DNA of 36,953 nucleotides, taken from assembly GCA_001724265.1 (NCBI GenBank), contig MEDY01000309.1, forward strand, positions 1 to 36,953. The letters are read 5' to 3'. Positions 5,201-36,951 of this stretch are shown here, one piece after another (position 1 is the first letter of the stretch; every line of letters starts with the position of its first letter). The notes beneath the pieces were generated by a model, which ran no database searches, was not told the origin of the DNA, and worked only from the letters and a program-made list of their open reading frames with translations. The stretch comes from Rhizaria sp. SCN 62-66. Taxonomy: Eukaryota. The position numbers and the translations under genes are program-made.

Positions 5201-5427
5201 TTTGTTGGCGGCGGCAGCACTTACCAAGCCGACTACGGCCACGCTCAGGCTGGCCTCGGCTCTGCCCAGCAGCAACAGCAGCAGCAGCAGGCGCCGACTG
5301 GCTACGGGCACGGCTACGAGTACAGCGATGATGCCCCCCACGGCGACGGCGTCGGCTACGCGCCTGGCGACCTGTTCGAGGACGAGGACGAGGACGACTA
5401 CGACGGCGTGACGGCCTTCCACACCAG

Positions 5428-5458
<31 letters not shown>

Positions 5459-11431: not shown

Positions 11432-14400
11432 ATGCCGCCGCGCGCCATATCGAAACGCTCTACAACAGCAGCTGGAGCGGCGTAGACAGAGGCGCCAACT
11501 GCGCGAACATCATCAACGACAACAGCGAAGTCGCACCAGTCGCGGCTAGCGCTTGCCCGCGTCTCGAACAGCAACAGCAAGACTGTTGAAGGCGATGACG
11601 ATGACGACGACGTTCTGATTGTCTCGAGCATCTCCTCAAGCAGCCTTAGCACGAGTTTCACGAGTACGACGGGTGACGACGCTGATGTTGAGATGACACC
11701 TGTCACAAAGCGCAGTCGTCCCCTGGCAATTGCAACAGGAACTGCTAACGCGAGTACCGACGGCAACACCAACAACAAATTGACTGACGCGACTCCGATC
11801 GAGAATGTTTCAGTCGCAGTTGAGAGTGACCATGTAACTAAGCAGCCGCAGCCCTCACAGGTCCAATCGCAACTACCTCAGCCGCACTCGCACTCTTTGT
11901 CGTACCACTCCCTCGGCCCTCTCGAGGCGCGCGTGATTGCGTTGCGCGTCATCGCGTGGTACCGGGCTTCCGCGAGGACGTTTGACTGGCGCGAACGCTA
12001 CCACTGCAGTGAGAGCACATCTGATAGCAGCAATAGTAGATATACCAACAACAACAACAGTGATGATGCGAGTGTAAGTGCGAACGGGAGCATGAGTACA
12101 AGTACGAGCGGTAATAATAGCGCGAACTACTCTGCTGACAGCAGCAATAGCAGTGATGCCACAAATGGCCGTAGCTCCCAGAGTACTTACACGTGGCAGA
12201 CGCTGCCCGCCGCAGCGCGCTACCGTCTCGGTCCCAGCCCTTGCGCCTGTGAGTACCTTCCTTCCCAGTCTGCCTCACAGCAGTCACCCCTGCAGCCTCA
12301 CTCATGCACCGGCTCTAGTTGCAGTGCTAGCACAACTCACACCAACAGCAGCAACAGTAACAGCAACAGCAGCGAAGGTGTCTTTGTCCTCGCCCCGGCC
12401 CTGCGCCTGCTGCTGCGCCCTGGCCTCCCCACGCTCACAGCGCCCGCGCCGGCCTCTTTGGCGCGCCCGGCGCCGCCGCCACTGCGGTCGTGCCACGCGC
12501 TGGCCTACCGCACCCTGCTCTCCGAAGTCCTGCTGCAGCAAACGGGCACCGCGCGCGTCGCCGCCGCGTTTCCGCGCTTCCTCGCAGCCTTCCCCACGCT
12601 GCGAGCGCTCGCTCGCGCGCCCGTGGCTGCCGCCGAGGCCGCCTGGGCCGGCGTCGGCTACTACGCACGGGCGCGCGCACTGCACAGCGCCGCCGGGGCG
12701 CTGCTCGCGATGGCGGAGCAGGAGTCGCCGACGGCGACGACGTCGAGCTTGAGCTTAGACGACGCTGCTCCTGTCCCAGTGCCTCGCTCCGTGCCCGCAC
12801 TACTTACCCTGCCGGGTGTCGGCCCTTACACGGCCGGCGCCATCGCCGCCGAGGCCTTCGGACTGCCCGCGCCGGCGGTCGACACCAATGTGCTCCGTGT
12901 CGTCACCAGGCTCCGCGCACTCTATGCGGCCCCCGCCGCCGCGCTGGCGTCGGGCAAGTACCAGCACCGGCTAGACGACGACGGCGGCGCATCCGGCGGG
13001 GAGATAAGCGCTGCGGGGAAGGGCAAAGGCAAAGGTCGACAATCGAATAAGGCCAAGGGTAAGGGAAAAGGCGAGAAATGCAGCACGAATGATGACGATG
13101 ATGATGATGTGGTTGTCATTGATAGTGACCATGACAACGACGATCATAACAAGAGCCCGCTTCCGAGTTCGACTTTGAGTGTGATCAAGAATGCGGGTAG
13201 TGGTGATATTGTTGACAAAAGCAGTGTCTCTAAGATCTTACAAGGACCCTTAGTTCCCCTGCTCACAGCCACACTCTCACCAACTGCCGCTGCTTCCGCT
13301 GCTTCTGCCTCTGTGACTGGGAATAATAGCGACGCGCGCGCTGCGAGCGGCTTCGACCCCGAGAGCTCCGGCCTGCCGCTGCTGCCGGCGGCCACGGCGG
13401 GCGCCGCGGTGTGGCGCACTGCGGCCGCACTCGCCAGGGGCGCCTGGGCGCTCACCAACGCCAAAGACGAGTGCGTCCAGATCAACAGCAACTCGAGTGG
13501 CATCGCTGATATCGAAGACATTGCCAACGATGGCGACCCGATCGTCTCACGCCCCGCCCCGCCTGCCCGTAGCCAGTCCGTGGTGCAGTGGAGCGGGTTT
13601 GCGGACGCCTTCCTGGCCTCGGAGATGCTGCAGGGGCTGATGGAGCTAGGCGCGACCGTGTGCCTGCCGCGCCTGACCCACTGCAGCCGTTGCCCGCTGC
13701 GCCCGCACTGCAGGGCCGCCGGGGAGGCGGAACTCAACAGCAACAGCGCAAACGCGGCGAGCAACGGGAGCAGCAACAGCATTAACAGCAGCGGTGTCAG
13801 CGGCTCTAGTAAGAGGCTACGGGTGCAGGACAGGTGGGCGCTGGCGCTCGCTCGCAACAGGCAGGAACAACAGCAGCAGCAAGCTCAACTTGACTCACCC
13901 TTTAAGCCCGAGTCTAAGCCTGAGTCCGAGGATTACGCGTCGAAGTGGCTCGAGTGGGCGCGGGGCCGCGAGTACTGGCTCCGGCACGGCTGCCCTCCTC
14001 AACTCCGCCCTGCTTCCTCCTCCGCTGACGCGGCCACTGCTGCTCACAGCCTCCCTGCTGTAACTGAACCTTCAGGGCCGATGTTGCCGCCTGCTCCGTA
14101 CGATGCTGCGAGCATGCCTGCCTTCGACGATTACAACGGCTTTGCTTCTGACGCGCGCGGATTAACTTTGTCGCAGCACGTGTACATGTTCCCAGAGCTA
14201 GCTGACCCCGAGAGTGAGACGTCGGTGGCCACCGCAGCGAATATAGTGCGCACACTGCTCGCGCAACAGCTGCAACAGCAACAGCAACAGCAGCAGCAGC
14301 AGCAACAGCACGAAGTGGAGTCCGAGTCATCAGCCTTGTCGCAGTTGCAGTCGCGACTGCAGCCGTTGCCGCCGACGCCACCCCACTTGCTGCAGTGGCG

Positions 14401-16408
14401 CTTTGCTGCTGCTGCGCCGGGGTTGCTGGCGGGCGAGAGCGGTTATAATAACAGCAACAGCAAGAAGAACAACAATTCATCTTGGAGTGAGACTGAATGT
14501 ACCATATGTGCCGACTCTGCCTGCAATGCAAGCACCAATGGAGGGGAAAGTGTTGCTAGCGAGAGTGACAGTGAGCTGGGAACACTCAGGTACCCTCTTG
14601 TTGTGCCTAAAGCCAAGCCGTCGAAGGATGGAACAACCGCGGGCAAAAAGGGGAACAAAAACTCGAGCATGAATGGCGATGATGACGAAAACGACCAGCG
14701 TGGTGATGACGTTGGCGCTGACGATGAGAATAATGAAGGGGACGACGGCTGTGATTATAACGATGACAGTGCGGCTCTGAAGAGTAAGAAGATCCTCAAG
14801 AAGACTCCTCCTGTTCAAAAGGGTGCTGCGAGCATTTGGCTTCAAGCCGCCAACGCCAACAACAGCAACACAAGCAATAACAGCATCAACAGCAGCAAGA
14901 AGAAGATTGCATCTAAGGGGGTACTCAGTGCGTGGGATGCGCCTGATGACTCACCATTCTACTCAGACTCTGACTCAGATTCGGATACTGAGACTGCAAA
15001 CAGTGCTAAGAGCAAGGGTGCCCGTGAGTCGTTTTTCATATCATCGCTACCGATTCTCACTCTCGTGACGGACAGCAACAACAATAGCACGCTCAGCGAC
15101 TCCGCTCCTCACAATTACTCTGCTGCTGCCCACAGTCGCTCTCGGCGTACGCAGTTCTTGCTCCTGCGGCGCAGGCCCCAAGGTGGCTTGCTTTCGGGCC
15201 AGTGGGACGCTTACCAGCACCCGCTCGTAACAACGGCAGCGACTACATCATCTTCATCAGCACCTTTACCAGCATTGGCATTAATAACAGCAGCAGCGAT
15301 GGGGGGAGCGGAAGCGACCACGGCCGCGGCTGTGGCAGAGACGGCGGCGCTGGCGGCGGCTGCGGCCGTGGCTGCTGAGTCCGCGCACGCCTGGGCGGGG
15401 CTCGTGACTGCAGCCGCAAACACCGCACGAAGCAGCGACAACAACAGCTCTATGATTTTTAGCGGCAATAGCCACAGCAACCCTGATTCACAGTCACTCC
15501 AAGCACAGTCTTTGTTTGAAATCACAAACACGGTCCGCGTGCGCGGCTGCGACCCCGTCACAGTCACTAAGCCTGTCAAGAACAGCATCAAAGGCGCGAA
15601 ATCTACGGTCAAACGCCGTCGTAAGGCGTTTGCGAAGTGGTTTTTGCGCGTCTACTCTTCAGGCAAACACTACTTAATGCCTATTGTCACTTCTCTGCGT
15701 CCCTCAACTACTCACACAAACGCTGCTGACGACACCTCACCTCCTATCACCGCTGAAACGACTGATTCTCATTATGCCCGTGAAAACGCTCCAACCAACG
15801 CTTCCTGGTCTCTGCACGAACGCAGCGGGGTCTGGTACGGCGGCCCGAGCCCCGACACGGCGCAGTTCTGCGCTGTCCCGCTCGCGCGCATCGCGTCCTC
15901 CCTCACTCTCGATAGCAACAACAACGACAACGGCAACGGCAACGGAAGCGGTGACAGCAACGGCATGAATGGGTCAAACTGTACATGTGACGCTAACTCC
16001 CAGTCTGCGCGTGCGTGTGCGTGTGACGAGCGGAACGACCTGGCGTTCGCAGCCGCGACCGTCGTGGGCATCAGTGATCGAGACTGCGTGGCCGCGCTGC
16101 AACAGCTGCTGCAGGCGCCTGTCGCGAGCACTCTGGCCTATTTGGCCACGATTCTCGCTGTGGCGGGACGCAAAGCCACCGAGCAGGATTTTGCGCGCGC
16201 AACTACTGCGCGAAAGTCACTCACTGCTACAGAGCGACTCAACGCTACTGAAAATGCAGCGGCAGCAACAACGGCAGCAACAGCGGCAGCAACGACAACT
16301 CCTGTGACAGCGTTTACAGCGATAATGGTCGATGCAGAAAACCTTAACATTGCTAAAGCACATGATGACGACGGTGATGGTGTTATTGTGATGTCAGATA
16401 GTGAATAA
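11432..16408 (+). CDS. MUTYH: A/G-specific adenine DNA glycosylase MutY/MUTYH-like, about 1658 aa if the TAG at 11483-11485 is read as sense (otherwise it starts at 11693)
   Basis: LLSEVLLQQT (catalytic Glu), WAGVGYYARARALH, HhH LPGVGPYTAGAI, VDTNVLRV (catalytic Asp), QGLMELGATV, [4Fe-4S] motif CX6CX2CX5C (CLPRLTHCSRCPLRPHC) and NUDIX-like LLRRRPQGGLLSGQW. The upstream ATG at 11432 (MPPRAISKR) is in frame and lies at the AT-rich to coding transition. Ends TAA. Confidence 0.92.
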
Positions 16409-17117: not shown

Positions 17118-18266
17118 ATGGACTTCAAGATTGTACGTCGCGTTTACGATCAGTACTCCCAAAGAATTTTAGTTTATGTGGCTTTTTCTTTGTGTCGATA
17201 TGGCTTTCTTCCTGCTTACAGTGCTTTTTCTCGCAACTCCGCGCAAACCTCCGCGTCTACGTCTCCACTGATGTCCTCGTGCCGCTCCTCCCCCCTTCTC
17301 ACCTCCCCCTCCCTCTCTCCCTCCTTCCCCCCCACCTTTTGCTTCGTGTCACACTGTTCAGACCGGGACCACGACGACCAGCTCTAGCTCCAGCTCCAGC
17401 TCTAACTCCAGCTCCTCTATGAACGGCAAGGTCACGTCGAGCTCGAGCCACAGCACCTCCACCAAGACCTCCGGCGGCCACTCCACTACCACCAAGAAGG
17501 GCAAGAAGACCATGGGCAACGGCGATGTCATCGAGTACGAGACCTCCGGCAACGTCACTGCGGTCGAGTTTGACCCTTCGAATATGAACAACGGCTTCTC
17601 CATGGAGTTCAACGCGACCGGCCCCCCGCCGCACTCCCCCCACACGCCCCACGGCCACACTGTGGTCACCACCACCCACCAGGGCCCCCACGGCCAGCAC
17701 GTCACCTACACCGAGACGCACACCACCACCGTACGTCTTTGTTCTATCAACACAAAAGCAATATTTCTAGCTATAGTTGCACTTATATTTCAACATATTT
17801 AATTTTTAAATCTATATCCCAACATCTTTCTTGTCAATTTCCCTTCGCAATAATCTCACACTTTTGCTACTTTTGGTATCTTCTCTTTCCTCTCTCGGGG
17901 TCCACACACACACACATATCTCGACTCTGCCCACGTCTGCCACGACAGAGCCCGAAGGCGAACATCGAGGTCAACGCCGAGGGCGCGCAAGCCGTGGCGC
18001 ACGCGGCGATGATGGGCGTGGCGAACCTCTTCGCGCCGAAGCCGCAGGTCGTGGTCAAGGAGACGCACACTGTGTATGTGCCGGCTCCCACGCAGCAGAT
18101 CGTGTACCAGGCGCCGCCGCAGGAGGAGGTTGAGGAGGAGGTGTGGGAGTGCGTTGGCTGGAGCGAGGGCACGCACTGCTGCTGCCGCGTCATGGACCCC
18201 GAGAAGGCCAAGGTAGTCAACGCCCGCAAGCGCAAGATGGACCGTGAGTTCTCCCACAACAACTAA
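17118..18266 (+). CDS. Hypothetical 233-aa Ser/Thr/His-rich protein. Exons 17118-17132, 17362-17730 and 17949-18266.
   Basis: ATG GAC TTC AAG ATT|GTACGT, ttcag|ACC, ACC|GTACGT and gacag|AGC: both introns are phase 0 and join ORFs 17419 and 17739 in frame. Strong C/G-ending codon bias. Ends TAA at 18264-18266. No family recognised. Confidence 0.8.
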
Positions 18267-19448: not shown

Positions 19449-22400
19449 TCAGCCGGTCTTGTTGACTGCACGCAGCGGCGTGATGAGGTTCCGCAGCTCC
19501 GCGCACACGACCTCGACGGAGAAGGGCGTCGTGACAAGAGCGGTGACGAACCGTTCCACGCCGCCCCCCGTCGCCACGGCCGCGACCGCGGACGCAGCGG
19601 CGGCAGCCTGGGGCGCGTTGGGACCGTTGGCGGCGGCGGCCGCGGCGGCGGCGGCGGCCGCGGCGGCGGCAGCGGAGGAGACGGCACCATTCCAGCGGTC
19701 GACGAGCGACTGCGGGAACGAGGGCTCTGAGTCGAAGAGCAGGCGGTAGAGCGAGACGACCTCGCGCAGCAGCCCGGTGAAGGAGCTGTCCTTGTCGTTA
19801 AGCTGCGGCAGCAGCACCAGGTCCGAGGCGATGGCGACGATCTGTTGCGGCAGTCCGCGCTGCTGCGCGACCGCGGCAAGCAGGTTGTTGGCGGCCCAGA
19901 AGCGGATGAAGAGCCGCAGCAGCTGCACGCTGGTGCGGTAGCCGGCCGTATCGGTGGGGCTGCTGAGCGTCATCTGCTCCAGCACGCTCTCGCACAGCGA
20001 CGGGAGCGTGTCGGCGTGGTGCAGCAGCACGGCGTCGAGCTTCGACGACAGACATTCGCGCAGGAAAAGGTAGAAGACGCGCACCATCTCGGCGCGGCAC
20101 GCGCGCTGCTGCGAGAGCGCGGCCGCTAGCTCCACGCCGGGCTCCGGCTCGGGCGGCGCCGAGACAGAGGCCAGGCACGCGAAGTGCTTCTCCACGACGG
20201 GCACGAAGACGTTGGCGAGCACAGGCGCGAAGTCGGCGCCGAAGCGCGCCATGAGCTGGTTGGTGAGCTCCACCACGCGTCCGATGTTATTGGCGTCCGA
20301 GCATTGCAGCATGACCGTCAGTGCGGGCGCGAGCGCCTGCAGCGCGTTGGCGCGCATCACCTCGACGATGACGTGCAAGAACGCGATCGTCTTGGCGCGG
20401 AGCAGCTCGTCCGCGGGCGCGATACTGTACGCGGCCATGACCTGCCCGAACGAGTGCTCGAGCGCCTGGCGCGTGCCCGCATCCTCGGCCTCGGTGGGCG
20501 TCATGCCCTTGATGACCGTGAGCAGCGCCTGCACGAGCTGCGCCGCGCGCTTCGTCACGACGTCGGCCAGCGTCGGCATCGCCGCGGGCGCGGCCGCCAC
20601 AAGGTGCGTCAGCGGCTCGAGGGCGACCATCATGGCGCGCTGGAAGAGCGCCGGCGAGTGCGGGCCGGCGACCGAGGACGAGCAAACCATCGAGAGGCAC
20701 TCGCAGAGGTGCACACAGTCGGTGAAAGACACGCGGCCCTTGAGCCCGCGCTGCGCGCCGCGCGAGAGCACGCTCGAGATGACGTCAGAGAGCGCCGTGG
20801 TGAGCTCCAGCAGAAAGGGCTGCAGGTGCGACTTGATGCTATCCTGCGAGGTGAAGGCGCGGATGGTCTTGGTGAGCTGATAGGACGCGGCGGCGCGGAG
20901 CTCGACGACCGGGGAGCAGATGCCGCGGTCGTCGAGGAAGATTTGCAGCACGCAGGGCAGCATCTGAGGGCACATCTCGAGCACCTTATGGTAGCGCGCG
21001 AGGCACTCGTACAGCGAGGTCGCCACCAGCACATTGGGGTGGTACGTCAGCGGCGAGAGGAAGAGCGACGCGAAGGCCGAGCACCAGGGCTCCGTCGTCA
21101 GCGCGGCCATGATGCCCTTGCCCACGGCGTCGCCGAGCACGAAGATGAGGTGGATAGCCGACTCGATGCTCGCAAACGGCAGCTGCGCCACGGCCGACCG
21201 GCCCGCCGTCGACAGCACCGAGGCAACCGCAGGCAGGCTGCCCGGGGCGGCCGCGGCGGCGGCCGCGGCGGCGGCCGCGGCGGCGGAGGCGGCGGCGGCG
21301 GGATTGTTCATGAGCGTCTTGTTGAGGTACTCCCCCGCGTAGCCGACGGTGTCCCCGGGCGCGGCGGCAACAACAGCGAGCGCGACCTGCGCCAGCATCG
21401 AGTGCAGCAGCTCAAGTCCGTAGTCGACGCACGCGTCGCGCGCCACGAGGACCAAGGTGCGGAACACGCGGTCGAGGCGCTGTGCGCGGTACTGCTCGAA
21501 GCGCGCCTCGCGGTCGTCGCGCGTGTCTGCGTGGAGCGTGTCGCCCTCGGTCGAGTGCCAGGGCGGGTAGCGCCAGCCCGCGACGACGGCCTCAAGGCTC
21601 GTGTCGACCACCGACTTGTGCGCGTGCTGCATCACGCCAGTGTACTTGAACAGCGAGAGGAACTCGCTCAGCGCGTCCGTGGCCTGGAAACCCACCTCGA
21701 ACGTGGGGTTCCGCAGGCTCGACAGCAGACACGCGGCCGCGCGCAGCAGCAGCGTCTCGTTGGCGTGCACCGACGCCAGCTCCTCAGGGAAGAGTGTCTG
21801 CGTGAAGGACGCAAAGTCGGGGCACAGCACCACGGCGCGCGTGCGCGTGGAGCCGTCCGCCGCGGTCACCGTCACCTGCTTGCCTCCGCCGGCCGCGCCG
21901 CCTCTGCCGCCGGCGCCCGCCTGCTGGTGCTTGGCGGCGTGCGACGCGGCGCCGAAGACCGACTGCGTGGCGCGGCTGGAGCCCGAGGCGGCGGCGCGCG
22001 CCTTGGTGCGCATGTCGTTGCCCGGGTACGTGGGGATAATCTCGACGCCGCCGTCGAGGACCTCGTCGTAGCAGGCCGTGAGCTGCGTCACGAGCGCGGC
22101 CGCAAACTTGGTCATGGCGCACGCAAAGGTGGTGAAGTAGCCGTCGTACTCGGTCACTTCTTCCTCCTGGGAGAAGTCGAACTTTTCGATGATGGACACG
22201 AAATCCATCTGCTCGATCAACGCGAGACGCTTCAGCCTAAAAATAACCCGAAAAGAGACGACAGGCAAAGGCGAGCAGCAACAAATAAACAAATGAGCAT
22301 GAGATATTTTCGAGAAAGAGGTACACCTCGTCAGAGAATCGTCGAACTATAGTTCTTTGTTTTCTAGTTAAAATTAAAATGAAAGTGTTCAATTAAATAA

Positions 22401-23525
22401 ATATAGAGATGATTTGTAAGAGCGTACCTGGGCATGCCCTTGGTGGTGATGGCGGTGAGGACCGCGGCAGCGCCGTTGCGGAGCGTGGGCTCCGACAACA
22501 GGTTAAACAGCAGCGGGAAAAACTTATCATTGACGACGAGGTCGAGCTCGATCCACTCGACGTAGACGGCTAGGATGCTGAGGGCTGACAGCGCGAGAGC
22601 GGGGTGCGAGCCCATATAAGTCAGGATGATCGTCTCCAACGCGCCCACGATGGCAGGGAGCGGGCCTGCGCGCATGGCGTCCTTGATGCCCATCGCGATG
22701 ACGGCGTCCATGCGCTCGCGCGTCTGACCCGTCGACATGGTCGTGTCGGCCTTGATGATGTCTTCTTCGAGCGTCGTGAGCGTGAGCACGAAGAGCTCCG
22801 CGGGGACGGCGCCCTGGGGCAGGAACGAGATGAAGTCGTCGAAGAAGCTCGGCCACGCGCCCGGGTAGTCGCTCTTAGCGATGGCCGTGAGACACGTCGC
22901 CACGCGAGCCGTGACGTACTTCGGCACGGGGTGCGCGGGCAGCACGTCGCGCACATAAAGCAGCAGCTGGGTCCGGATGAACGACTTGGCCTCCTCGCCC
23001 AGCGCCTGGTAACGCTGCTCGATGCCGCGCTGCAGCATGTTTAGGCACACGAATTTGACGTGGTCGTGCCGCTGTGTCAGCGTCGCCGTGTGGAGACGCT
23101 CGAGGCAGAGGCGGAACATGTCCGCGCTGTCAGAGACGGAGCGCAGGTAGTCGCGCGCGGCCTCCGCCGTCGCCGGGTCAGAGGTCGCCACGTGCACGTA
23201 CGCCACAAGCACCGCGCGCTCGAAGTCGTCCTGTGGTGGCGTTATGAGATGAGTATCGTAGAGGCGAGAAGCGAACCATGTGTGAGAAGACGTAATAGTG
23301 GGGACCTTGCGTGGAGATAGAGTACTTATGGAAAATAAAGTTGCAATGTGAAAAGTATATGTAAAAATGTGTGGATTTTCTTTGGTTAAAGTTGGAAACA
23401 AGCGAATAAATGTGGCCAATTGCAGTGCTTAAAGAACGTACCTGGGCGGTGGCGGCCGAGGCCGAGGCCGCCGCGGAAGCGGAGGCTGCGGAGGCCGGCG
23501 CCGACGGTGATGCGAGGCCGGACAT
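19449..23525 (-). CDS. XPOT: Exportin-T (tRNA exportin, Los1/PAUSED-like importin-beta family), about 1224 aa. Exons 23525-23442, 23230-22428 and 22236-19449.
   Basis: IBN_N/Xpo1-like N-terminus (HVKFVCLNML, DYPGAWPSFF, IKDAMR, YVEWIELDLVVNDKF, KGMP) and downstream YECLARY and FLDDRGI..P...LRAAASYQL motifs typical of exportin-T. Introns 23441-23231 (phase 0, GTACGT..cag) and 22427-22237 (phase 2, GTACGC..tag) keep frame. Ends TGA at 19451-19449. Confidence 0.9.
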
Positions 23526-25794
23526 TGTGTGGGTGAATTAATTAAACAGAAAACGGACGAGCAGAGGCAGCAGCAAATGGGCTGGCTCTGAGTCGGTGCG
23601 CGCGAACGGGCAGCGGTGCGCTGTCAGTCGAGAGCCTGTGGCGCGGGCAAAGCTGTGAGGCGAGCGAGCGAGGCTGAGTCGAGAGTGCTGACGCTGCTGT
23701 GGGCTGCAAGTCGCGACTACGGTGGCGGCGAGAGCGAGAGGCAACGCGGGGAAGCGAGCGGGCGGGAGCGGGGCCGTTCGCGAGGGCGTACGCGGGAGCG
23801 CGAGCGAGAGCTTCGGGGGGGCTTGCGGCGGCTCTGGGGTAGCAGCAGCGGCAGCCGGGGGACTTAAGGAACTGAACTGCCTTGCTTTCACTGCCGGAGA
23901 GGACAGTTAGGGAAACGCGGGGTCGGAGACGCGTTTGCGGGGCAACGCGCAAAGGGCGAGCGCGGGCTTGGGGCGGCGAGCAGCGACGAGAGCGGCAGCA
24001 GCAACAGTGGCAGCGGCCAGCAACAGACGCGACGCCTATACGCCACAGAAGAAGCAAAGAAGGAAATATGATCGCAAAAACAAAGAAATTAGCTCATGCA
24101 AGCAGAGTTGAATTGGAGATTCTTGGTCGTATCGTTATTGACAATCCAAATAGGATGCAAAACGGGGTGGCAAAAGCACGTTTTGATCCTCGTGTTCGGG
24201 CGAGGCCAGAAAGAGCAGCTGCACCGGGGCCTACTCTAGGGCCCCAATACGCATGATAAATCCGTCTGACGCGTTCAACGACAGAATATGTGGTGTCCAA
24301 GCGCAAGAACATGTCGCTGGTTGGTAGCCGAAAAGCTTAAAGTGAAACGGGAGGGACTACGTGCAAACAAGGGCAAAGAATTGTCCGCGTCCTCGGCAAG
24401 TGCGCGCACCGCAAAAATAACCCGGAAAACGGCACGCAAACAAGTGCAAGCACCGGGATGAAGCACATAGAACAGAAAAAAGTGACAATAACTCAATTCC
24501 ACCAAAACTTTGCCATAAAGCTGACTTCACAACGAATTACAGCGGTCTATCAAATACAGCCCGCCGCCCTCTGCCTTCGTCGGCATCTGGCCGAGTGACC
24601 GTGAGCAAGGTAATTGCCACTTTAGGAATGGCATCAAGCAGCTGACACCACGCCAATGCGCTATCTAGCTTTGTGCATCACATTAAAGTCGTGTTTTTTA
24701 TATTTTCCTAAAATAACACTGTGACATTGCTCCATCTTGACGATCTTCAACGCGCTTTTCAGTCTTCCTCTTTGACCTAGTCTCTAACCGCTCGCCAACT
24801 CCACGCCGTACCCTTGGTAGCCGCATCTACTCTTCTTCAACACGCATGTCGTCACTGTTTAAGGGCTGTATGTTGAGTGTATTTGCTAGCTGATGTGTCA
24901 TTCCTTTTCTTTGAGCTTCGGAAGTGTGTGTTCGTGTGGGTCCTGTGACCCATGCGGCTGTTACCAACCGTTGCGACCGCTTGTGCTGTTTTCCTCTTTG
25001 TACGCACTTACTAGTTACTCTTAGCGATAACCTTAAGCCCCTGTGATTTTTGAGTGGACTTAGTACCTACGAGCGCTGTTTTATGTAGCTCAGGCATTGT
25101 CTTGATAGCACAGCAGCACCTAAGGGGAGAGATGTTCATAGCAGCAAATCCCTACTTCGATCATATTCTAGAAGTCAGATATCGTGACGATTATAATGGG
25201 CAATGCTATTTAAACCGATTTATTACATACTATTTGTAACGATGTATTACATATTACAATATTTTTAACTGTAGATGTTGTTTAAGTACATAAGTCCCTG
25301 CATTTGTGGAAGCTCACCGCCGCCTTCCTTGGATATCTACTTCTCCTCAATAACCTCAAAGGATAAACAAACAAAGTCACATAGACAGCGCATTGTGGCA
25401 ATGTTTATATCTCTATTTTAATTGCCTAATAAATACCAATTTAAGTTGAGAGAGCAACGCTGACGCTGTGTAGCCTCCATAAAACACGATCCAGACTTCC
25501 TCCGCCTCGTGCATCATCATTCTGCCTTGGACGGCAACTCAAACATTGCATACATCGCACGTATTCAGAAGACTAAGATATATAATAGAGATATTATATG
25601 TAAATGGTGTCTTTCTGTTTTAATTTTTAACCATATTTGCGCTGACGGAAGCACCAGCGAAATATCCATCCCCGACTGACCCCATTCCCCTTTCCTCCTG
25701 CTGTTCGCCCCTCTTCCCTCCCGTGCGCCACCCCAGCCGCCCCCGCGGCTGTTCCTTCCTCTCCCCGCCTTCCCCACCCCGTTCCGCGCGGCAG

Positions 25795-28700
25795 ATGGGC
25801 GGCGCCGTGTCCGCGCTGCTGGGCAGCAGCGTGCCGACGCTGCGCGCGGTGTTCAAGGAGCTGACCGTGCCGCTGCTCTCAGGCGACTGGCCGGCGCTGC
25901 TGCGCAACGCGCGCTTCTGGGCCTTCGCCGCGCGCATCCGCGCCACACCGCGCTACCTACTGCTGCTGCGCGCGCAGATGGCTTCGGTGCTGGCCGAGGG
26001 CGACGCGGCCATCGCGGTGCTGCTGCGCGCCGCGCTGCCCACGGTCCCGCCCGCGGGCACGGCGCTCGTGCTCTCGGTGCTGCGCCTGCCCTTCGTGACG
26101 GCCATGCTGCAGTCCGTCTGGTTCTGGGCGCTGCTGCTCGACAGGGAGTTTGTGCAGGGCATGCTCGGCATTAACTACGAGTTCGGCTTCGCAGGGTACG
26201 CGTCTCATCATAACAAAGCAAACGCTGATCAAATTGTGCTATTTTTCACTAAATTGTGTATATCTCGCTTTTATGATATCCTTAACGAACTATACTGCAT
26301 TAATGCATTAAATTCATTTTTTTCCAAAATACTGTATGTTTTCGTTTGGTTTTGTGTTTGCTATATAGATCAACGATCGCGATGATTCTGGCGCAACTGT
26401 CTCGTCCGGAGGTCACCTACTTACTCAGCGACATCGAGCTGCTCACAACCAAGGCGGCCGCTGCGACAGCTATGGCGGCGAAAGATAAAACACAAGCTAA
26501 AAACAAAACAAAGCAGAGTGGAACTAAGACTAACGCGAAGACGAACACAAACGCGCCGATTAGTGCAAGTGCGAAATCAAGTGAGAGCGAAACTAATGGT
26601 GGCTCCGCCTCTGCCGCCCCTGTCACGCCTCGATTGGGTTTCAGCACAAGTGCCTTATTCCAGCGTTTATGCGCAGATGCCGCCACACTATCCCGCAACT
26701 TAGCCCTCTACGCCAGCAAGCAGCGGAAACAGCTAAGGCAGCAACAACAACAGCAGCAACATCAGCAGCACCACTAGCCGTTGCAGCAACAGGTATTGCA
26801 GCCCCCGAAGCGTCTGTGGGTGACTGTGCTGCGCTTTGCGGCCTCGGCCTCGGTCTCGGCGCTGGCGGCCGACCCCGCGCTAGACCAAGCGGTCGAGGCC
26901 CTTACACGGCCACTTACACCCGACGAGGCACTGAGACAGAGGGCGATGATGCAGACGCTGGAGTCGGCCGACGCAGCCACCGCAGCAACTGCTACCGCAG
27001 CAGCAGCGACTACAGCAAAGACCGAGACTGCTCCTGCAGCTGCGCCTGCAACCGCGACTGTGACGTCGATTGCAGCTGAAACTGCGCCGTCAATCGAGAC
27101 TGAGACTGCGGCTGAGACTGTGGTGGGGGCATTGGTGCGGCTGCTGTGGGCGCGTTTGTCAGTCGCGCTGGACACTTACACTGCGCCCAAGGGTACTTAC
27201 ACCTCTCCAGCGAATACCACTGCTAAGACACAGCAGGCTACTGGCACCAAGGACAGCGACAAGGCCGCCGCGGCCGACTGCGACGCCGCGACTGACAATG
27301 AGGAGGCTGCGAATGACCGGGAGGGTGCGAGCCTTGGCGCGCTGCTCCGCGCCTCGTGCGCCGCCATCGCGGACTTTGCGCGCAGTCCGCTGATGCGCGC
27401 GCCGGTGTGCAGCAGCAAAACACATGCAAACACATCCACTGACGTAAACAGCAGCTCGAACGTTGCGCAACAGCAGCCTAGCGCGGGTGACCGTGGGCAG
27501 GAGGTGGTGACTGTGGGTATGTTTCTGGCGCATCACATTGATGTCGTTATCGACGGCTGCCGCTTGTTTTCGCGTGATTTGCTGACCCTGCTGCGTGAAG
27601 GTCTCCAAGAAGCAGCGAAACAGCACAAAGAGCAGCAAATTCTCCGCAAGCAGCAGCAGCAGCAGCAAGAGAATGAGCAGCAGCAACATCAGCAACAACA
27701 GCGCGCATCATTGCAACGGCAATCTGAAAACGCGAGTGCGAGCACGCCTGCTCCGAGTGCTGATGCCGGTGTCGTGCGAACTGTGCCCATTTGGCCTGAC
27801 GCTTCAGCTGCAAGAGTCCCCGTCAATAACAACAAATATAGCAAAATCACTGCAGATTCTGTGAGCGCAAAGGACTCGACTCTTGACAGTGTGATTGACG
27901 GCCATATTGACTCATTTCTTCAGCAAGATCTCTCTGAAGACGACGCTACTCGCAACAACTCGCTGCCACACTCACAGATGCCGTCACAGTCCCAGCTACA
28001 GCCACAGCTACAGCTACAACAACAGTCGCACTTGTAGTCGTCGCTGGCCACCTCCCCCTGGTCGGTATGGCTGCCCCAGTCGATCCTGCTGCTCTCGCTC
28101 GCGCGCTGGGCCGTGCTGAGCCCGCAGTCGTTGCGGGGCGTGCTGATGCTCGCGATGGCGGCACCGGCGTGGGGGCAGGTCTGCGCCTCTGCCGCCACTG
28201 CCGCAGTCGCAGGCACTGCTCCAACCCCAGCCACAGCCACTGCCGCTGCCACTGCCGCTGTGACAGCCGCAACCGAGGACTTGGCGTTGCTCTATGACCA
28301 GTATTTGGCGACTCTCCGCAGCAATAATGCCTATAGCGGCCCCAGCACCTGTTCGGGCGATCAGACTGACTCACGACCTGCGTCGGCTGCGCAGGCCGTG
28401 TTGGCGCCCCTCGTCGCGGCTGTGAGCTGTCCCTTCGCACGCTCGCTCGTCTCGCTCCTTTTGAGTCCCGCAGCGAAAGCGCACGGGGCGACGAGCAGCG
28501 CGAGTAGTTACTGCTGGTCACTGCGTGAGTTGCAGAAAGCGACGTCTCGCGGCTTAACTGCCGGAGGGGGCGACTTGACTTCTCATGCGAGCGATCAACT
28601 GGGTCTAATTGTCCCTTTCTCCCCTTTCTCGCAACTCTCGCAAAAGCTCGCTCACAACACACACAACGCCACGTGTACAGCGAGCTCTCCCGTCAGCCCT

Positions 28701-31700
28701 GCTGGCTGCGCGGCCGTGGTGCCCGTCGTCGCGGTGGTCGTGGCCAGCGTGCGCGACGCACTCGCGCTGCTGGGCGCCGCGTCGCAAATGCCTGCAGACT
28801 GCGTCGACTGCGAGCGCGGCGAGTGTCAGTGCCAGAGTTAGCGCCAGCGCCAGCGCCAGTGTCAGAGCCAGTACAGGATGAGTGACTCTGAGCATGAGAA
28901 GAACAGTGACCGTGAGCGTGTGCGTGACTCTGAGCAGCGCGGTCAGTGCTTGTATCACGTCGACGGCGACTGTGAGCTGGACGTTAGTGATCATGAACAC
29001 CGGCAGCAAAATTCACCGCAGCTTCTGATGCAGCGCCAGCAGTATTGTCAGCTCCTACAACTGTGGGACTGTAGCAATGTGCAAAGCGCTGCTGTAAGCG
29101 CCAACGACGGAGGCGATCCTAGCACCACCACTACTCACAACAAGAATAACAAACACGGTGGCAAGAGTAAGAGTGCAAAGAGTGCAAAGCCTAGTCAAAG
29201 CTGGTGGTCTAAACTCTGGCCTTGGAGTGATAACACCTCTACCACTAGTGCCGACACGACTGCTGTAGCTGCGACGGTCAACAGTGCTGCTGAGAGCGTC
29301 CCTGTCTCATCAGCTTCTGCCAGTCACAGTGACAGTCTCGCTACCGCAACTGCGGCGACAGTGCCCACAGTCACCCCCTCCCCCTCCGTGCTCACGGTTA
29401 CTCTCCCGCTGGACCTGCCCCTCGTGCACACGCTCTCTCGCTTCTGCGACGCGATGCTGCTCGCAGTGCCCACGCTCGTGCCTCACAGCGCTGACTCGAC
29501 CGCGACTGCAGCGGGCTCAGAGACTGCGACCGCGCCGCTGCTGGCCTCACTTGTCTCGCAAGTCTTCTTCACGCCCGCCGTGCTGGCCTCGTTTCTTGGC
29601 ACCATGTGGGTCGACTCGCTTCTCTGGACACTTGCGGAGTCGCTCCAACAGCAAACCCCTGCCACGGCCTCAACAGCAGCAGCAGCGGCAGCAGCGACGC
29701 CGGGAACAAGGCTAGGGACAACCGCAGCACCATTAGCTCTGGCCGCGAGCGCGTCGCCCACTGTCGGCCCGCTGCGCATGCTCTATCTGCGCACGCAGGC
29801 CAACGCGGCCGCTTCGATCCGTCTCGGGCGCATTTTTTCGGCCCCCGCCGTTGTGGCCGCGTTCGTCGCGCGCGCCGCGGGCTGGCGCACCGTGGGCGGC
29901 CGCGCGTTCAGGCGCGTGTTCAGCATCGGCGCGCTGACCGAGAGCGAGCTCGACGCCTACACCGGCGCTAACACCTCGAACAGCACTCACATGAACCCGA
30001 ACACGGGCGCGGGCAGTCACAGTGGCGGCGCTAGCGGGAGGATGGGTGTCGGGACAGCGATTACGGCCTTCGTTGGCGATATTGTTGCTGGCCTTGCGGA
30101 TATCCACTTGCATTCCGGCAGGTATTTGCATGGCGCCGATGGACAATTACGCTTTGATGCTAACAGCAACAAAGACGGACTGCTGAACGTGAACACTAAT
30201 GCAGCTTTGGTAAAGGAGTCTCATGCACAGACACATGTCCCTTTGCTATCTCTCGAACAACTGCAATCCCAGTCTCTGTTGCGCTCGCAGTCGCAGCAAC
30301 AGACGCAGTCGCGCTCGCTGCTTGTGCCGCTGCTGCAGTCGCCGTGGCTGGTCGCGTCCTGCTTGCATATCGTTCTGGCTCGTTTGTGGCCTGCCTGCGT
30401 CAACACCACAACTGCAACAACTGCAGCAACAACGTCAAACAACACAAACTCGCACTTAAGCGCGGGCGCGAGCACTCGTGCCGCTGCAGTCTTCCCGTGG
30501 GCCGCGTGCGTTGTCGCGATCATGCTGTCTGCGCTCACGGTCACTCCGCCTGCGTCGAACGGCGTCAGTACAAGCTCTGTCGGGAACCTAAGTGCCGCCC
30601 TTGGAGATGTCAATAACAGCTCTTCAGTGTTCACGCCGATCGTGTACAAAGAGGCGCGCGCCGCGGTGCTTGCGCTTGTGACTCACCCACTTACACTGCC
30701 GTACATCAGCCATCTAAGTACCTATCTAAGTGCCGCAAACAACAAGGACAACGTCAACAAACAGCAACAACAACGCGCTACAACGACGCTTTACACGAAC
30801 AACAGCACGAGCCCTGTGAGCACTGCCAATCACAATATGCATACACACAGTACCATTAACAATGGTGCTGGTTCAAGTGCTGGTGTCGGCGTCAGCGTTG
30901 GTAATCGAGTGAAAATGGGTTTTGTTAATGCGAGTCCGAAGGTAAAGCAACTCTTTTCTCGTATTGCGCAAATGCGCAAGCAGCAACAGCAGCAAAAGCA
31001 ACAGCAGTTGCCGCCCCAGGCACAGTTACGTTCTAGCTCAAGCTCCAATGCGAGTGCTAATGTGAATCAGCCACAGCCGCAGTCGCATTCACAGTCGCAT
31101 GTCCCGCTGCTGTTGTTTCCCCCGCGGCCACTGCTGCGCGTGTTGCTGGCGTCTGCACCCACGCTGCTGTCTCTCATCTTGTCGGCTGTTGCGAGCGCTC
31201 ACAGTCACCCTCCAGCGCCCGCACACGCGCTGCCACAGTCATAGTCACATTCTTTGAGTAACGCTGGTGTTGATCAAGTGAACAACTCCGCTGTTGCCGC
31301 TTCTGCTCCTGCTGCCGTGCATGCGACTGAAGCCAAGGCCCGCCTGTGCGCCGCTGCCCGTGTGAACGCTGCGGCCGAGACGCACGGTCGGCTCACGCGT
31401 TTGTTCATCGCCAACACGTCGCGCTCCATCGCGCGGCTTGCAGCCGCGGACAGAATCACGCCAGATATTAATGCAAGTGCTTCTGGCTCCGGTGTAAATG
31501 GGTGCTTTGTTGCAGCGCGCCACCTCGCACGCTTACTCGTCACAGACCCTTCAAACAACGCCGCCTCCACTAACCCAACCGCAGCGGCGACAGCGGCGAC
31601 AACGGCGACGATGAATGTCAAGACGAAGCATAGCGAAGCTGTATGTGCGCGTGTGTGTGTGCGCAGCGGCGTGCTGCAGCTGCTCACGGTCAGTTTCTGG

Positions 31701-34700
31701 CTCGCAGCGCGTCAGCTCGCGCGTCGTGCGCAGCTGCGCAGTGCCGAAGTCGCTGTGCCGCCGAAAACGCCATCGGATTCTGGCAAACTCAACGGCAATG
31801 TGCATACCAATAGCTGTGATGTTAGTGATGATGATCAAGACGACAGCGACTACTTTAGCGATCATGATGATGACGACACTGATTGCGACTTTGAGACGAG
31901 CATGAACACTGTTAGAACTTCCAGCAGTGGTGTTGTAAGCCGTGTGCGTGCTTCTTTGCCCGGTGTCAGCCAGTTCTTGTACCACACTGCCGTCCCGGTA
32001 CTGTCGCGCGCGCTCACGCTCTCTGCGGCGCTGGACTCATGGATGCCCACGACTACTGGAAGCGGGAGTCTCAGCACCCGCTTAGATCTCACTCCGAACA
32101 TTAAGTCAAGCGTGAAGACCAAAGCGGCAGCGGTTGATGCGGCGCTGCTGTCTCTCACCCAGCAGTTTACGACGAACGCTCACATCACGTGCCCTTGCCC
32201 CTGCGCTTGCCATAACAGCATCAACAACATTATCAGCTCCAGCAGCGTAAACGCACATTCGAGCTCTCCGGACTCAAGTTTCAGTTGCCGTGATGACTGC
32301 GGATTTGCGTGTAGCTGCGGTGTTGTACATGTGTCGGTAGCGTTTCAACAGCCGCCCGCATCCGAGCGCGTGCACTCGCAGTCCCAGCCATTGCTGTCAC
32401 AGTCGTCGAGCTCGCAGCTTTCTTCAAGCTCGCAGTCGCTGATGGTGCGCTCGCGCTCTGTTGTTGTCGATGCGTTATTTCCCACAAATCCAATGAATAG
32501 TAATGTTCGGAGCAGTGCGAGTGTCAATAACGATGATGCTCGAGTTGATGCTCTCAAAACAACTGCGATCCGCCTCCGTCTTCATTTGAACACTGACAAG
32601 AACAGTGACACTGACAACAGTAACGACTCTGACACTAATGTGATCAACAGCAATGGAAGCAACAACTCGAGCACCAGTAAGAACAGCAGCACGAACACTC
32701 AGAGTGTGAATGCAATGACATCTGCTCGCGCACTAGCTTCCCGTCTCTACCCCGCGTCTCCCGCCTCTTCACTAAGGGGTGGCCGCGTCGCAACGGCAAC
32801 AGTGTCGTCTCTCGCCCTCGCATGCACGCATTACCTGCCGTCACTGCCATTACGAGTGCGGCTTTATTTCGATATTGCATCGCCCGCCCTGACTAACAGC
32901 AACAACAATGGTGGCATCAAGATTGACAGTGATCTCGATACAGCTGCCTTAAGTGACCGCGGGCGCAGTTTAGCAACGGACTCTCAACTCCTGCCGTTGC
33001 TGCAGCAGCGCTACCCTGCCACGCTCTCAGCCGCTGCCACGGCCGACGCGCTGCTGCTGCCGGCGCTGGCAATTGCGCACAGTGGCGCTGTGGCCGCGGT
33101 GGCCGGCAGCGAGGCGCTGGCGAACGCGATCGCGCTGGCCTGGGACAGGGCGCGGCTTTACAGAGGCAAGATTATCCGCAACAGCAACAACAACAACAAC
33201 AGCAACAACAGCACGAGCGAGAACACAAGCAATACCACTAATGCTGGTCACGTCAACAGTAGCTTTGCTAATACCGCTGGTTTCGGTTCCCACACCACCA
33301 GCGGTAGCTCCAGCGCGGCCAGCGGTCTCTCCCTGCTCTCGGCGTCGCCGGCCTCTGCGGCGCGGCTTGTCGGCCTTGGTCGCAGTCTAGCCAAGGACTC
33401 CACACTGCGCGCGGCCCTAGGTACGATCAATATACATGTATATTGATTCAATCAAAACTTTGACAAGCAAATCACTATCCTGACTATTATCAATTGCATT
33501 CATGACTTCGATCAACTTTACTTCGCTTTTTTTAATTGTTTTCATTGATAGTGCGCATCGCCGAGTCTCCGCTGCCAACTGTGGCGCCGCCTTTGATTGC
33601 TCTTCTGCTTGTTTTACTCGCACCAACAACAGCAACAGCGACCGCTACAACTGAGGCTACTGCTACTAATGCTAGCGGTGCTAATGTTGATGTTCAGAGT
33701 GACTGCTATGTGCGTGCGTTTGTCGCTACTGTGTTGTTCACAGTCACTTGCACATCAAACGCGCAGACAACAACACAAACGCAAGCCAGCACGGCCGCAA
33801 CTTACGCGTCAACGCTGAGCAATGGACGCACGACTAACATCAGCAATGACGCCAGTGTTGATACGAGTACAAGTGGTAACGACAGTGATAGTGTCAGTGA
33901 TGCAAGTGAGAACTCTGGTTTTGGTTTTATTCTTGATTTGCCCTCTGTTTTTGCTGCTGCTCTCAAGTCAGACTGCGATGTCGCAACTGCTGGCTCTAAA
34001 AGCGCCAGTAAGAGTGGTAACAACGGCAGCGTGATAGGCCACAAAAGTGAGTTCACATCGCTGTTAGAGCGACTTTCTGCGATTCTCACGCTTCTCATTC
34101 CTTTGCAACTGCCGCTTAGCAACACCACCACCTCGACAACGCATGGTCCAACATCTGCACCAGCGACAACGGAAGCTACTGCGGCGACGGCGGCCGCTGC
34201 GAATGTGACTAAGCTGGCACAAACACTGCTTAAGGTTGCTAGGGCGAATCAGCGGTGGGACCTCCAAGGTAAGTATAAGGACAACGCTCACTAAATGCAT
34301 TTTATCATAATCGTACAAGATGTCGTATATTGAATCATTAGATGAAGAAACTGCAATATATCTCTGAAAAATTACTGATTTTACATCTTCTCTCGTCGTA
34401 TCCCCGTCACATCTCCCAGGTCTACTAACCTCCAAGGCGACAGCAAAGGCTCTTTTGTCACCGGCAAGTGTGCTGCTGCTGGCGCGGGGGCGGGTGGCTC
34501 AGCTCAAGACACTGCTGGGCGGCGGCGGCAACAACAACACCAGCGCTATGAGCAACAGTGGTCGCAGCAGCAGCAACAGCAGTCATACTGCTGGTGGGAG
34601 TAACAGCGCGATGAGTATTGTGGGTGAACTGATGCGTGAAGGCTTTGCTGTGAGTAATACCTCCAGCAACAGTACCAACAGCTTGACCACAAACAACACT

Positions 34701-35588
34701 GCGAGCAAACTAGCTCACAGCAACCCGAACGTGGCCAGTGTTGCACCTGGAGCTGTTGCAACGCTTGCTAACAGCATTACTCCGAGTGACGCTGACGCTG
34801 ATGCTCTTTCCACAATAACGAGTGCTGACCCTGCTGCAAATGATGATAAACACAGTGCCTGCTATGACAAAGGCTCGGATGGTGACAACATCAAGAGCAG
34901 TGTCACTGTTACTGCCAACACATCTCAGGTTCCTGCGTTGATTTACAACGCCGATTCTCGCGACATCACGTCATCCACTCCTATCACCACAGCGACCGCA
35001 ACAACTCAAACAACGACCACTGGGACCGACGCTCCTGTTGGCAGTATTGGCATCCTCAACAGTGACAGTAATGTCAACGCCAGTCCCATCGCTGGTGTCA
35101 ATGCCAGTGTCGGTGCCAGTGACAAGGACGACGTTACGACTCTGAGCGCTCTGGCTCGACTCAGGGCTCGCATCAAGACGCGCATGCAACAAAAGGAAGC
35201 GCAGCCTCACTCAAAAGATGCGCCCCCACAAGCATCAACTGAGACTCAGTCACAGACACAGACACTTCCGCAGCAACAGCTCCAGCAATTACAACTACCG
35301 CCGTCAACCCAGTCGCCGCCGCTGCAGCTGCAGCAACAATCGCAGACGCCGCGGCGCTTCTTACCACTGCGTGTACTCACGCAACGCAACACAAACACGA
35401 TTTCGAACAACGGCAATAGCAATAGCACAACCAGACGTGCTCCGATATCTCTGTACAACGCCACAACTGCTACAATTTCGGTCGTCCCTATGCAAGTGAA
35501 CGCAGTTCATGGTCGTGACTGGAATGCCGGTATTGTTGACATAGTACGGGGTTTCAACGACGATTTGCCTATCGTTGCGCAATTCTAA
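25795..35588 (+). CDS. Giant hypothetical low-complexity protein, at least 3112 aa, with four in-frame TAG codons. Exons 25795-26195, 26369-33420, 33552-34268 and 34420-35588. The 5' end is uncertain.
   Basis: ORFs 26346, 26781, 28113, 28878 and 31254 share one frame and are separated only by TAG (26775, 28035, 28839, 31242). Introns 26196-26368 (phase 2), 33421-33551 (phase 1) and 34269-34419 (phase 1) have GT-AG ends with matching phases. Ends TAA at 35586-35588. The ATG at 25795 directly follows a polypyrimidine-CAG acceptor, so upstream exons probably exist. Confidence 0.8.
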
Positions 35589-36019: not shown

Positions 36020-36092
36020 AGTTCTATAGCTCAGTGGTATGAGCATTGGTCTAATAAGCCAATGGTCCTGGGTTCGACCCCCAGTAGGACTA
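36020..36092 (+). tRNA. tRNA-Ile(AAT), copy 1
   Basis: 73-nt cloverleaf: acceptor AGTTCTA/TAGGACT+A, D-arm GCTC/GAGC, anticodon stem TTGGT/GCCAA with loop CTAATAA (AAT at 36053-36055), T-arm CTGGG-TTCGACC-CCCAG. It is followed immediately by a T-run (Pol III terminator). Confidence 0.95.
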
Positions 36093-36251: not shown

Positions 36252-36324
36252 AGTTCTATAGCTCAGTGGTATGAGCATTGGTCTAATAAGCCAATGGTCC
36301 TGGGTTCGACCCCCAGTAGGACTA
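36252..36324 (+). tRNA. tRNA-Ile(AAT), copy 2
   Basis: Identical 73-nt sequence 232 bp downstream (anticodon 36285-36287), also followed by a T-run. Confidence 0.95.
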
Positions 36325-36918: not shown

Positions 36919-36951
36919 ATCATAACTCAGTCACGATCATAACTCAGTCAC
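36919..36951. repeat. Short tandem repeat, 17-bp unit ATCATAACTCAGTCACG, about 2 copies, at the window edge
   Basis: atcataactcagtcacg followed by atcataactcagtcac, read directly from the sequence. Confidence 0.6.

Follow-up and report, generated by a model that had tools for sequence, protein, structure and literature searches.

Four in-frame TAG codons at glutamine-like positions in an orphan gene of a wastewater eukaryote suggest translation of UAG alongside UAA and UGA stops

Nuclear genetic codes in which UAG and UAA differ in meaning are few, amounting to about eight lineages in those parts of the literature that are cited here. In the type closest to the case described below (NCBI translation table 15), UAG alone is reassigned to glutamine, with UAA and UGA as stops; this type is described for Iotanema spirale, Protocruzia tuzeti, Hartmannula sinica and Trochilia petrani, and the consulted sections of the same reports give the precedent for UAG-only reassignment to glutamine through a tRNA whose anticodon is CUA (PMC5304391, PMC11687900). 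According to these sections, 204 in-frame UAG codons are found in 126 genes of Iotanema (PMC5304391), and internal UAG codons in 78–84% of the genes of Trochilia and Hartmannula (PMC11687900). UAG is also reported to have become a codon for leucine in the rhizarian exLh and in phyllopharyngean metagenome-assembled genomes (MAGs) from the TARA collection, and a serine codon in Scotinosphaera, with UAA kept as a stop (PMC11687900, PMC5304391). A different phenomenon is the glutamine-context readthrough of premature stops in the yeast alleles snf5-Q225X and snf5-Q267X, given as 2–8% per stop in the part of the report consulted, where tRNA-Gln is described as competing with the release factor and inserting glutamine (PMC13192750). 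Here we analyse contig MEDY01000309.1 of GenBank assembly GCA_001724265.1 (Rhizaria sp. SCN 62-66), a stretch of 36,953 nucleotides that we call the window, in which one long gene (gene E, 25795-35588, forward strand) has an open frame containing four TAG triplets. In the reading that we favour, at a probability of roughly 0.57, TAG is translated, most probably as glutamine, and is a rarely used codon, with TAA and TGA still serving as stops.

The literature that we searched yielded no relevant report of a code variant in activated-sludge eukaryotes. A preliminary description of the window had stated that uncoupled UAG reassignment is reported in only a few eukaryotes; this view is somewhat dated, since reassignment of UAG alone to glutamine is by now described, as far as the pages seen of one report go, for Iotanema, Protocruzia, Hartmannula and Trochilia (PMC11687900).

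Gene E consists of four exons, and the TAGs all fall in the second. Its parts, all on the forward strand, are as follows.

25795-26195, forward strand: exon 1, with an ATG start and 72% GC, followed by GTACGC; the model closes in frame
26196-26368, forward strand: intron 1, 173 nt, 31% GC, GTACG...TATAG
26369-33420, forward strand: exon 2, 7052 nt, 2350 codons, 59% GC, its sole stops being the four TAGs
26775-26777, forward strand: TAG 1, codon 270 of gene E, directly after a Gln/His run
28035-28037, forward strand: TAG 2, codon 690, after a Gln/Leu/Pro-rich run
28839-28841, forward strand: TAG 3, codon 958, in a CAG slot of a (CAG-NGN) repeat
31242-31244, forward strand: TAG 4, codon 1759, within a Gln/Ser/His patch
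33421-33551, forward strand: intron 2, 131 nt, 29% GC, GTACG...GATAG
33552-34268, forward strand: exon 3, part of the model that closes in frame
34269-34419, forward strand: intron 3, 151 nt, 35% GC, GTAAG...CCCAG
34420-35588, forward strand: exon 4, with the terminal TAA at 35586-35588

If the TAGs are read through, the frame that contains exon 2 stays open for 2380 codons (26304-33446, forward strand) with exactly four non-standard steps, each of them a TAG. The first base of exon 2, 26369, ends an intron-split codon, and the full codons run from 26370 to 33419; these 2350 codons include four TAGs, no TAA and no TGA, whereas the remaining five frames of the region hold 66, 115, 96, 65 and 55 stops. 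An open coding frame beside frames with 55–115 stops is far beyond chance and is thus not a by-product of composition. The four-exon model as a whole is 9339 nt long, a multiple of three that corresponds to 3112 codons and a TAA; apart from the four TAGs it contains no internal stop, and its exons meet in compatible phase at canonical splice borders. Start codon, terminal TAA and all six splice sites are intact, and there is no frameshift in 9339 nt. With a codon-usage model trained on the other genes of the window, each of the five segments delimited by the TAGs has a coding log-likelihood of +0.23 to +0.39 bits per codon in frame 0, whereas the values for frames 1 and 2 are below zero throughout. 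The preliminary description had reported a 7052-nt exon held in one frame, free of frameshifts, TAA and TGA, with TAGs at 26775, 28035, 28839 and 31242, and a recount gave the identical result. Its phase-compatible exon borders are borne out by the four-exon model, which has canonical splice sites and stays in frame up to its terminal TAA, and the coding-like composition that it described across every TAG is matched by the frame-0 signal in five of five segments. In-frame TAA and TGA do not occur at a rate similar to that of TAG, as both number zero in the codons of exon 2.

The TAGs are also present in assemblies of other samples. DNA of this contig was found in bioreactor, wastewater and activated-sludge samples. 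Data set X2 belongs to a separate study (2025), and its contigs cross introns and intergenic sequence, which identifies it as DNA; pieces from X3 and X4 are identical, possibly represent one data set and were counted once, and X1 is possibly the source of the window. TAG 1 is covered by an X2 contig (23990-26876) in which no letter differs, TAG 2 by an X2 contig (26899-28674) whose sole difference is at 26936, TAG 3 by an X3/X4 contig (28225-31143) with no differences, and TAG 4 by an X2 contig (30888-33170) that differs at 31058 and 32886 alone. The check for assembly errors thus came out in favour of the TAGs, all four of which are carried by contigs from other samples. Over its listed contigs, X2 differs from the window by five single letters (17508, 26936, 31058, 32886 and 35551); as judged by these alignments, almost the same strain was sampled in two studies separated by ten years. 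Four of the differences lie in gene E, where two are synonymous and the others change Ala to Thr and Gly to Val, too few for a test of selection. Alignment joints at about 26738-26770 and 28840-28872 came from unrelated metagenome contigs with CAG or GCC repeats (short sides of 20–31 letters, low agreement) and were disregarded.

The positions of the TAGs are glutamine-like. Within 10 residues on either side, a TAG site has on average 6.0 glutamines, compared with 1.22 for random positions (P = 0.0016, 100,000 draws). Over the same distance CAG codons have 4.64 and CAA codons 4.43 glutamine neighbours, and the other codons from which TAG can arise in one step have 1.1–2.1, with 2.1 for TTG and 1.8 for TCG. 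TAG 3 lies in a tandem repeat of (CAG-NGN) units (28822-28872) and takes the place that CAG holds in the other seven of the eight units. The residues that directly flank TAGs 1 to 4 are His/Pro, Leu/Ser, Ser/Arg and Ser/Ser, so that a glutamine codon adjoins none of the four, and the base that follows the triplet (+4) is C, T, C and T, respectively, always a pyrimidine. Glutamine makes up 5.9% of the gene E protein. The glutamine-rich surroundings and the CAG slot together suggest that the TAGs derive from, or equal, glutamine codons, and the neighbourhood test points to glutamine rather than leucine or serine as their meaning, insofar as sequence context can tell.

The ends of the genes complement this picture. 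Five further genes are found in the window, namely a partial RPS24, an MFS-like gene with one intron, a MutY-like HhH-GPD gene, a small two-exon gene and a gene for exportin-T. Their terminators and introns, to be read together with those of gene E, are the following.

7520-7692: intron of the MFS-like gene
10771-10773, forward strand: TAA terminator of the MFS-like gene, at the frame end
16406-16408, forward strand: TAA terminator of the MutY-like (HhH-GPD) gene, at the frame end
17734-17933: intron of the small two-exon gene, borders estimated
18264-18266, forward strand: TAA terminator of the small two-exon gene, at the frame end
19449-19451, reverse strand: TGA terminator of exportin-T; when aligned with protein P0002, exportin-T has its C-terminus at the same position as P0002
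22237-22427, reverse strand: intron of exportin-T

Five gene ends can be read in the window, of which four are TAA, one is TGA and none is TAG. Re-reading them at 10771, 16406, 18264, 35586 and 19451-19449 upheld the earlier statement that all are TAA or TGA and never TAG, and that of exportin-T is the only one backed by a homologue. Location at glutamine-like positions and the avoidance of TAG at five of five ends favour translation of TAG. To this extent the claim of the preliminary description that TAG is a sense codon while TAA and TGA terminate has partial support; its extension to a genome-wide code is beyond the reach of this window. As to other TAGs, the one at 7690 is the 3′ splice site of the MFS-like intron, those at 22366 and 22349 are intron-internal, and a TAG at 11483 is found 18 codons into the MutY-like frame, before the first Met codon.

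On the reading that we favour, this GC-rich microbial eukaryote of wastewater and activated sludge would translate UAG, most probably as glutamine, and terminate at UAA and UGA. The TAGs of gene E would be ordinary but rare glutamine codons, born from CAG by C-to-T changes in glutamine-rich, low-complexity stretches. Such a code would involve a tRNA-Gln with the anticodon CUA, a single base change from CUG, and an eRF1 that recognises UAG less well, and the low usage of the codon could mean that the reassignment, in a genome biased towards GC, is early or of weak efficiency. More tentatively, and as a possibility that we hold doubtful, a GC-rich microbial eukaryote outside the ciliates may be at an early stage of an independent capture of UAG for glutamine, with the codon tolerated first in glutamine-rich, fast-evolving sequence. 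An early capture would fit a TAG share of about 2% among the glutamine codons of a single gene and the absence of TAG from conserved genes, and CAG-to-TAG changes would be nearly neutral in low-complexity sequence.

Several results weigh against translation of TAG as glutamine. The claim of reassignment depends on four codons of a single orphan gene: only one of six genes carries TAG, with four TAGs in 8937 codons, which is far below the usage established for table 15 codes. The other genes, among them the conserved ones for exportin-T, the MutY-like protein and RPS24, contain no in-frame TAG in 5828 codons that include 151 CAG and 27 CAA. When the expected number was scaled by the CTG/TTG synonymous first-position pair, as an internal control for GC bias, 2.95 TAGs were expected in these genes, giving a probability of 0.053 for finding none and of 0.10 for finding all four in gene E; the uncorrected ratios, 4 TAGs to 180 CAG and CAA codons in gene E and 0 to 178 in the other genes, are more lopsided still. 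The absence of TAG from the other genes is a tension with reassignment, not a contradiction. Five gene ends are few, too, as equal use of three stops would leave TAG out with a probability of about 0.13. The window holds no tRNA with the anticodon CUA, its tRNA genes being two for tRNA-Ile(AAU). No homologue of near full length was found for the read-through exon 2, and none of the TAGs can be matched with a conserved glutamine in an alignment. Finally, none of the eight RNA pieces among the matches listed for the polyA RNA run X5 crosses a TAG or an intron (there were 4360 further pieces). The window likewise contains no eRF1 gene.

The RNA run nevertheless touches gene E. X5 contains 24% of the sampled words of exon 2, and its contigs on this exon, among the matches listed, cover 26444-26681, 27004-27639 and 29573-29848, the latter two lying downstream of TAG 1 and TAG 3, respectively. 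RNA depths are given per contig, and no ranking of expression was drawn from them.

The introns of the window have a uniform appearance. Five can be read (three belonging to gene E and one each to the MFS-like gene and exportin-T), all of which start with GTACG or GTAAG, mostly the former, and end with YAG, in four of the five cases TAG. The four with firm borders are 131–191 nt long, and GC contents, where measured, are 29–36% within exons of 52–72%. The introns of gene E are at 29–35% GC and exon 2 is never below 41% in any 100 nt, in agreement with the earlier observation that no AT-rich intron surrounds the TAGs. In the 150 nt 5′ of each TAG the GC content is 51–73%, and the 600-nt stretches upstream of the TAGs contain a single GTACG or GTAAG motif, namely the intron 1 donor at 26196. 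Exon 2 thus has no stretch of the intron type (GTACG or GTAAG start, about 130–200 nt, AT-rich, YAG end) around its TAGs.

These results can be set against the explanations that retain the standard code. Gene E may have been inactivated recently, by four independent CAG-to-TAG nonsense mutations that became fixed in the population, so that its first 269 residues or nothing at all would be made. We consider this unlikely, even though the TAGs are confined to gene E with none in the 5828 codons elsewhere, an orphan gene with no detectable relative may be one that the cell can do without, CAG outnumbers the other codons of exon 2 that are one step from a stop (97 CAG, compared with 47–48 CAA, 6 CGA and 22 TGG), and the probability that four of four nonsense changes yield TAG, 0.07–0.10, is not negligible. 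The difficulty is that the rest of the gene has not decayed: its 9339 nt are free of frameshifts and of internal TAA and TGA, the six splice sites are intact and the coding signal is undiminished in all five segments. As about 2.7% of substitutions create stops, four nonsense hits imply some 150 neutral substitutions, and the probability that all four of them are CAG-to-TAG is 0.0006–0.014, depending on the weight of transitions; with frameshifting indels included, TAG makes up each of the first four disabling hits with a probability of 5e-5 to 1e-2 for assumed indel-to-substitution ratios of 0.05–0.2. A process that converts CpA to TpA in the manner of repeat-induced point mutation (RIP) was rejected as a source of the TAGs by the dinucleotide indices of exon 2, where (CA+TG)/(AC+GT) is 1.32 and TpA/ApT is 0.78. 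Contigs of the RNA library, moreover, still map to exon 2 beyond TAG 1. Neutral decay therefore fits poorly. Useful readthrough under the standard code, whereby a near-cognate tRNA-Gln(CUG) or a weak natural amber suppressor would render TAG leaky or ambiguous, appears less probable again. It would explain why TAG is tolerated in a gene such as this alone, and it agrees with the glutamine-rich surroundings and with the pyrimidine after each TAG, a C in two cases; C at +4 is described as weakening termination in the section consulted (PMC13192750). Four stops in series at 2–8% each, however, would leave only about 1e-7 to 4e-5 of full-length product, as calculated from the figures seen in that report (PMC13192750). 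The QXQ motif is absent, with no flanking glutamine codon at any of the four sites, and the protein contains 5.9% glutamine compared with 7–20% in the yeast examples.

The TAGs might, alternatively, never meet a ribosome, either because GC-rich in-frame introns are spliced out or because the mRNA is edited. None of the listed RNA contigs spans a TAG, and TAG is the usual 3′ splice site here, as four of five introns end with it. The readable introns are nonetheless AT-rich, of the GTACG/GTAAG type and, if their borders are firm, 131–191 nt long, whereas the TAGs are preceded by GC-rich sequence and by no donor-type motif other than that of intron 1, and both frame and coding signal continue on either side of them. 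We know of no established process of U-to-C editing in nuclear mRNA, and removal of the TAGs from the message is in our view very improbable. Sequencing or assembly errors at CAG codons can be practically dismissed, as contigs of other samples share all four TAGs yet depart from the window at five other places. Weighed together, the evidence leaves translation of TAG as glutamine as the reading that we prefer.

Database searches characterise gene E as an orphan. A segment of 800 amino acids matched only P0003, which is the window's own fragment, and an exhaustive HMMER search with 1199 residues over TAGs 2 to 4 returned four matches, three of which are likewise the window's own fragments. P0006 was disregarded as a homologue, its 38% identity reflecting a match of low complexity, and P0007 and P0008, both members of the cluster, do not differ from the window. 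Pfam gave nothing significant for gene E, and the ESM Atlas no usable match for exon 1 and the last segment of exon 2. Among metagenome contigs, queries with exon 4 and the exportin-T alignment found no further DNA of the organism or its relatives, and an exportin-T query found nothing in genome contigs and viral contigs. The database entries P0003, P0004 and P0005 are pieces of gene E that gene callers using the standard code have split at the TAGs, which implies that proteins of such organisms are mis-predicted in metagenome catalogues. The gene E protein has five strongly hydrophobic stretches of 19 residues. Its start (25795-25830, forward strand) reads Met-Gly with Ser at position 6, which we take to resemble an N-myristoylation signal.

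As to the lineage, RPS24 compared with chains of the PDB ranks animal and fungal proteins best (1e-26), followed by Tetrahymena (3e-23) and by apicomplexan, kinetoplastid and Euglena chains (1e-16 to 1e-19); on sequence similarity of this kind, the ranking would be a weak hint and is non-diagnostic.

The neighbouring genes show features of their own. The window has 59% GC overall, and its conserved genes have a GC content at third codon positions (GC3) of 0.75–0.91. Over the regions 2252-10773, 19449-23428 and 25795-35588, GC3 contrasts strongly between neighbouring genes: exon 2 of exportin-T and the MFS-like gene reach 0.84–0.91, the MutY-like gene has 0.66, and exons 2 and 4 of gene E have 0.55–0.64. 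The MutY-like HhH-GPD glycosylase (11486-16405, forward strand) has about 1640 codons, several times the usual length, through long Asn-, Ser-, Asp- and Gln-rich inserts. Exportin-T is 56% identical to P0002, and its exon 1 (22428-23428, reverse strand) aligns with the N-terminus of that protein yet lacks a Met at the corresponding start; another short 5′ exon is probably located upstream, where contigs of the RNA library map (23466-23999). The two tRNA-Ile(AAU) genes (36020-36092 and 36252-36324, forward strand) are identical, lie 232 nt apart and are each followed by a run of T; no exact copy of them was found in collections of prokaryote genomes or viral contigs. Near the end of the window (36919-36951) a 17-nt unit is present in about two copies, and all four aligned runs lack two letters at 36930, a discrepancy that may reflect a break or an error of the assembly at the contig end.

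If TAG is read in this organism, an uncultured wastewater eukaryote with a GC-rich genome joins the lineages in which the UAG and UAA codes are split. The kind of code would be one already known, and what would make the case stand out is a GC-rich genome together with very low usage; a reassigned codon at such low usage would bear on the question of origin through codon capture or through an ambiguous intermediate. An early capture, if true, would be more interesting than the established UAG-to-glutamine cases, in that it would offer a view of an intermediate stage, postulated by models of reassignment and no longer to be seen in those cases. If gene E is a fresh pseudogene, the finding is an ordinary one.

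Compared with the systems described at the outset, gene E differs from an unprocessed pseudogene, with which it shares premature stops and the lack of relatives, in having one kind of stop, no frameshift, intact splice sites and a full coding signal. With yeast Snf5 it shares stops that come from glutamine codons in Q-rich, low-complexity sequence, with C at +4 at two of the four sites; the yeast stops, according to the portion of the report that we draw on, are single laboratory alleles in which a QXQ flank matters, whereas the four TAGs here are in series and none has a flanking glutamine. The uncoupling of UAG from UAA is common to this locus, exLh, the TARA MAGs and Scotinosphaera, and the difference is that the neighbourhood test here favours glutamine over leucine and serine. 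The table 15 type is resembled in that TAG is the sole in-frame stop, stands at glutamine-like positions and is avoided at five of five gene ends, which are TAA or TGA, and the mechanism that we propose would be equal as well, with an altered eRF1 and a tRNA-Gln(CUA) that a single mutation separates from CUG. It is set apart from that type by its low usage, by the fact that no TAG falls at a conserved aligned position and by its composition, the ciliates described having 27–54% GC and this window 59% GC with few, long, AT-rich introns.

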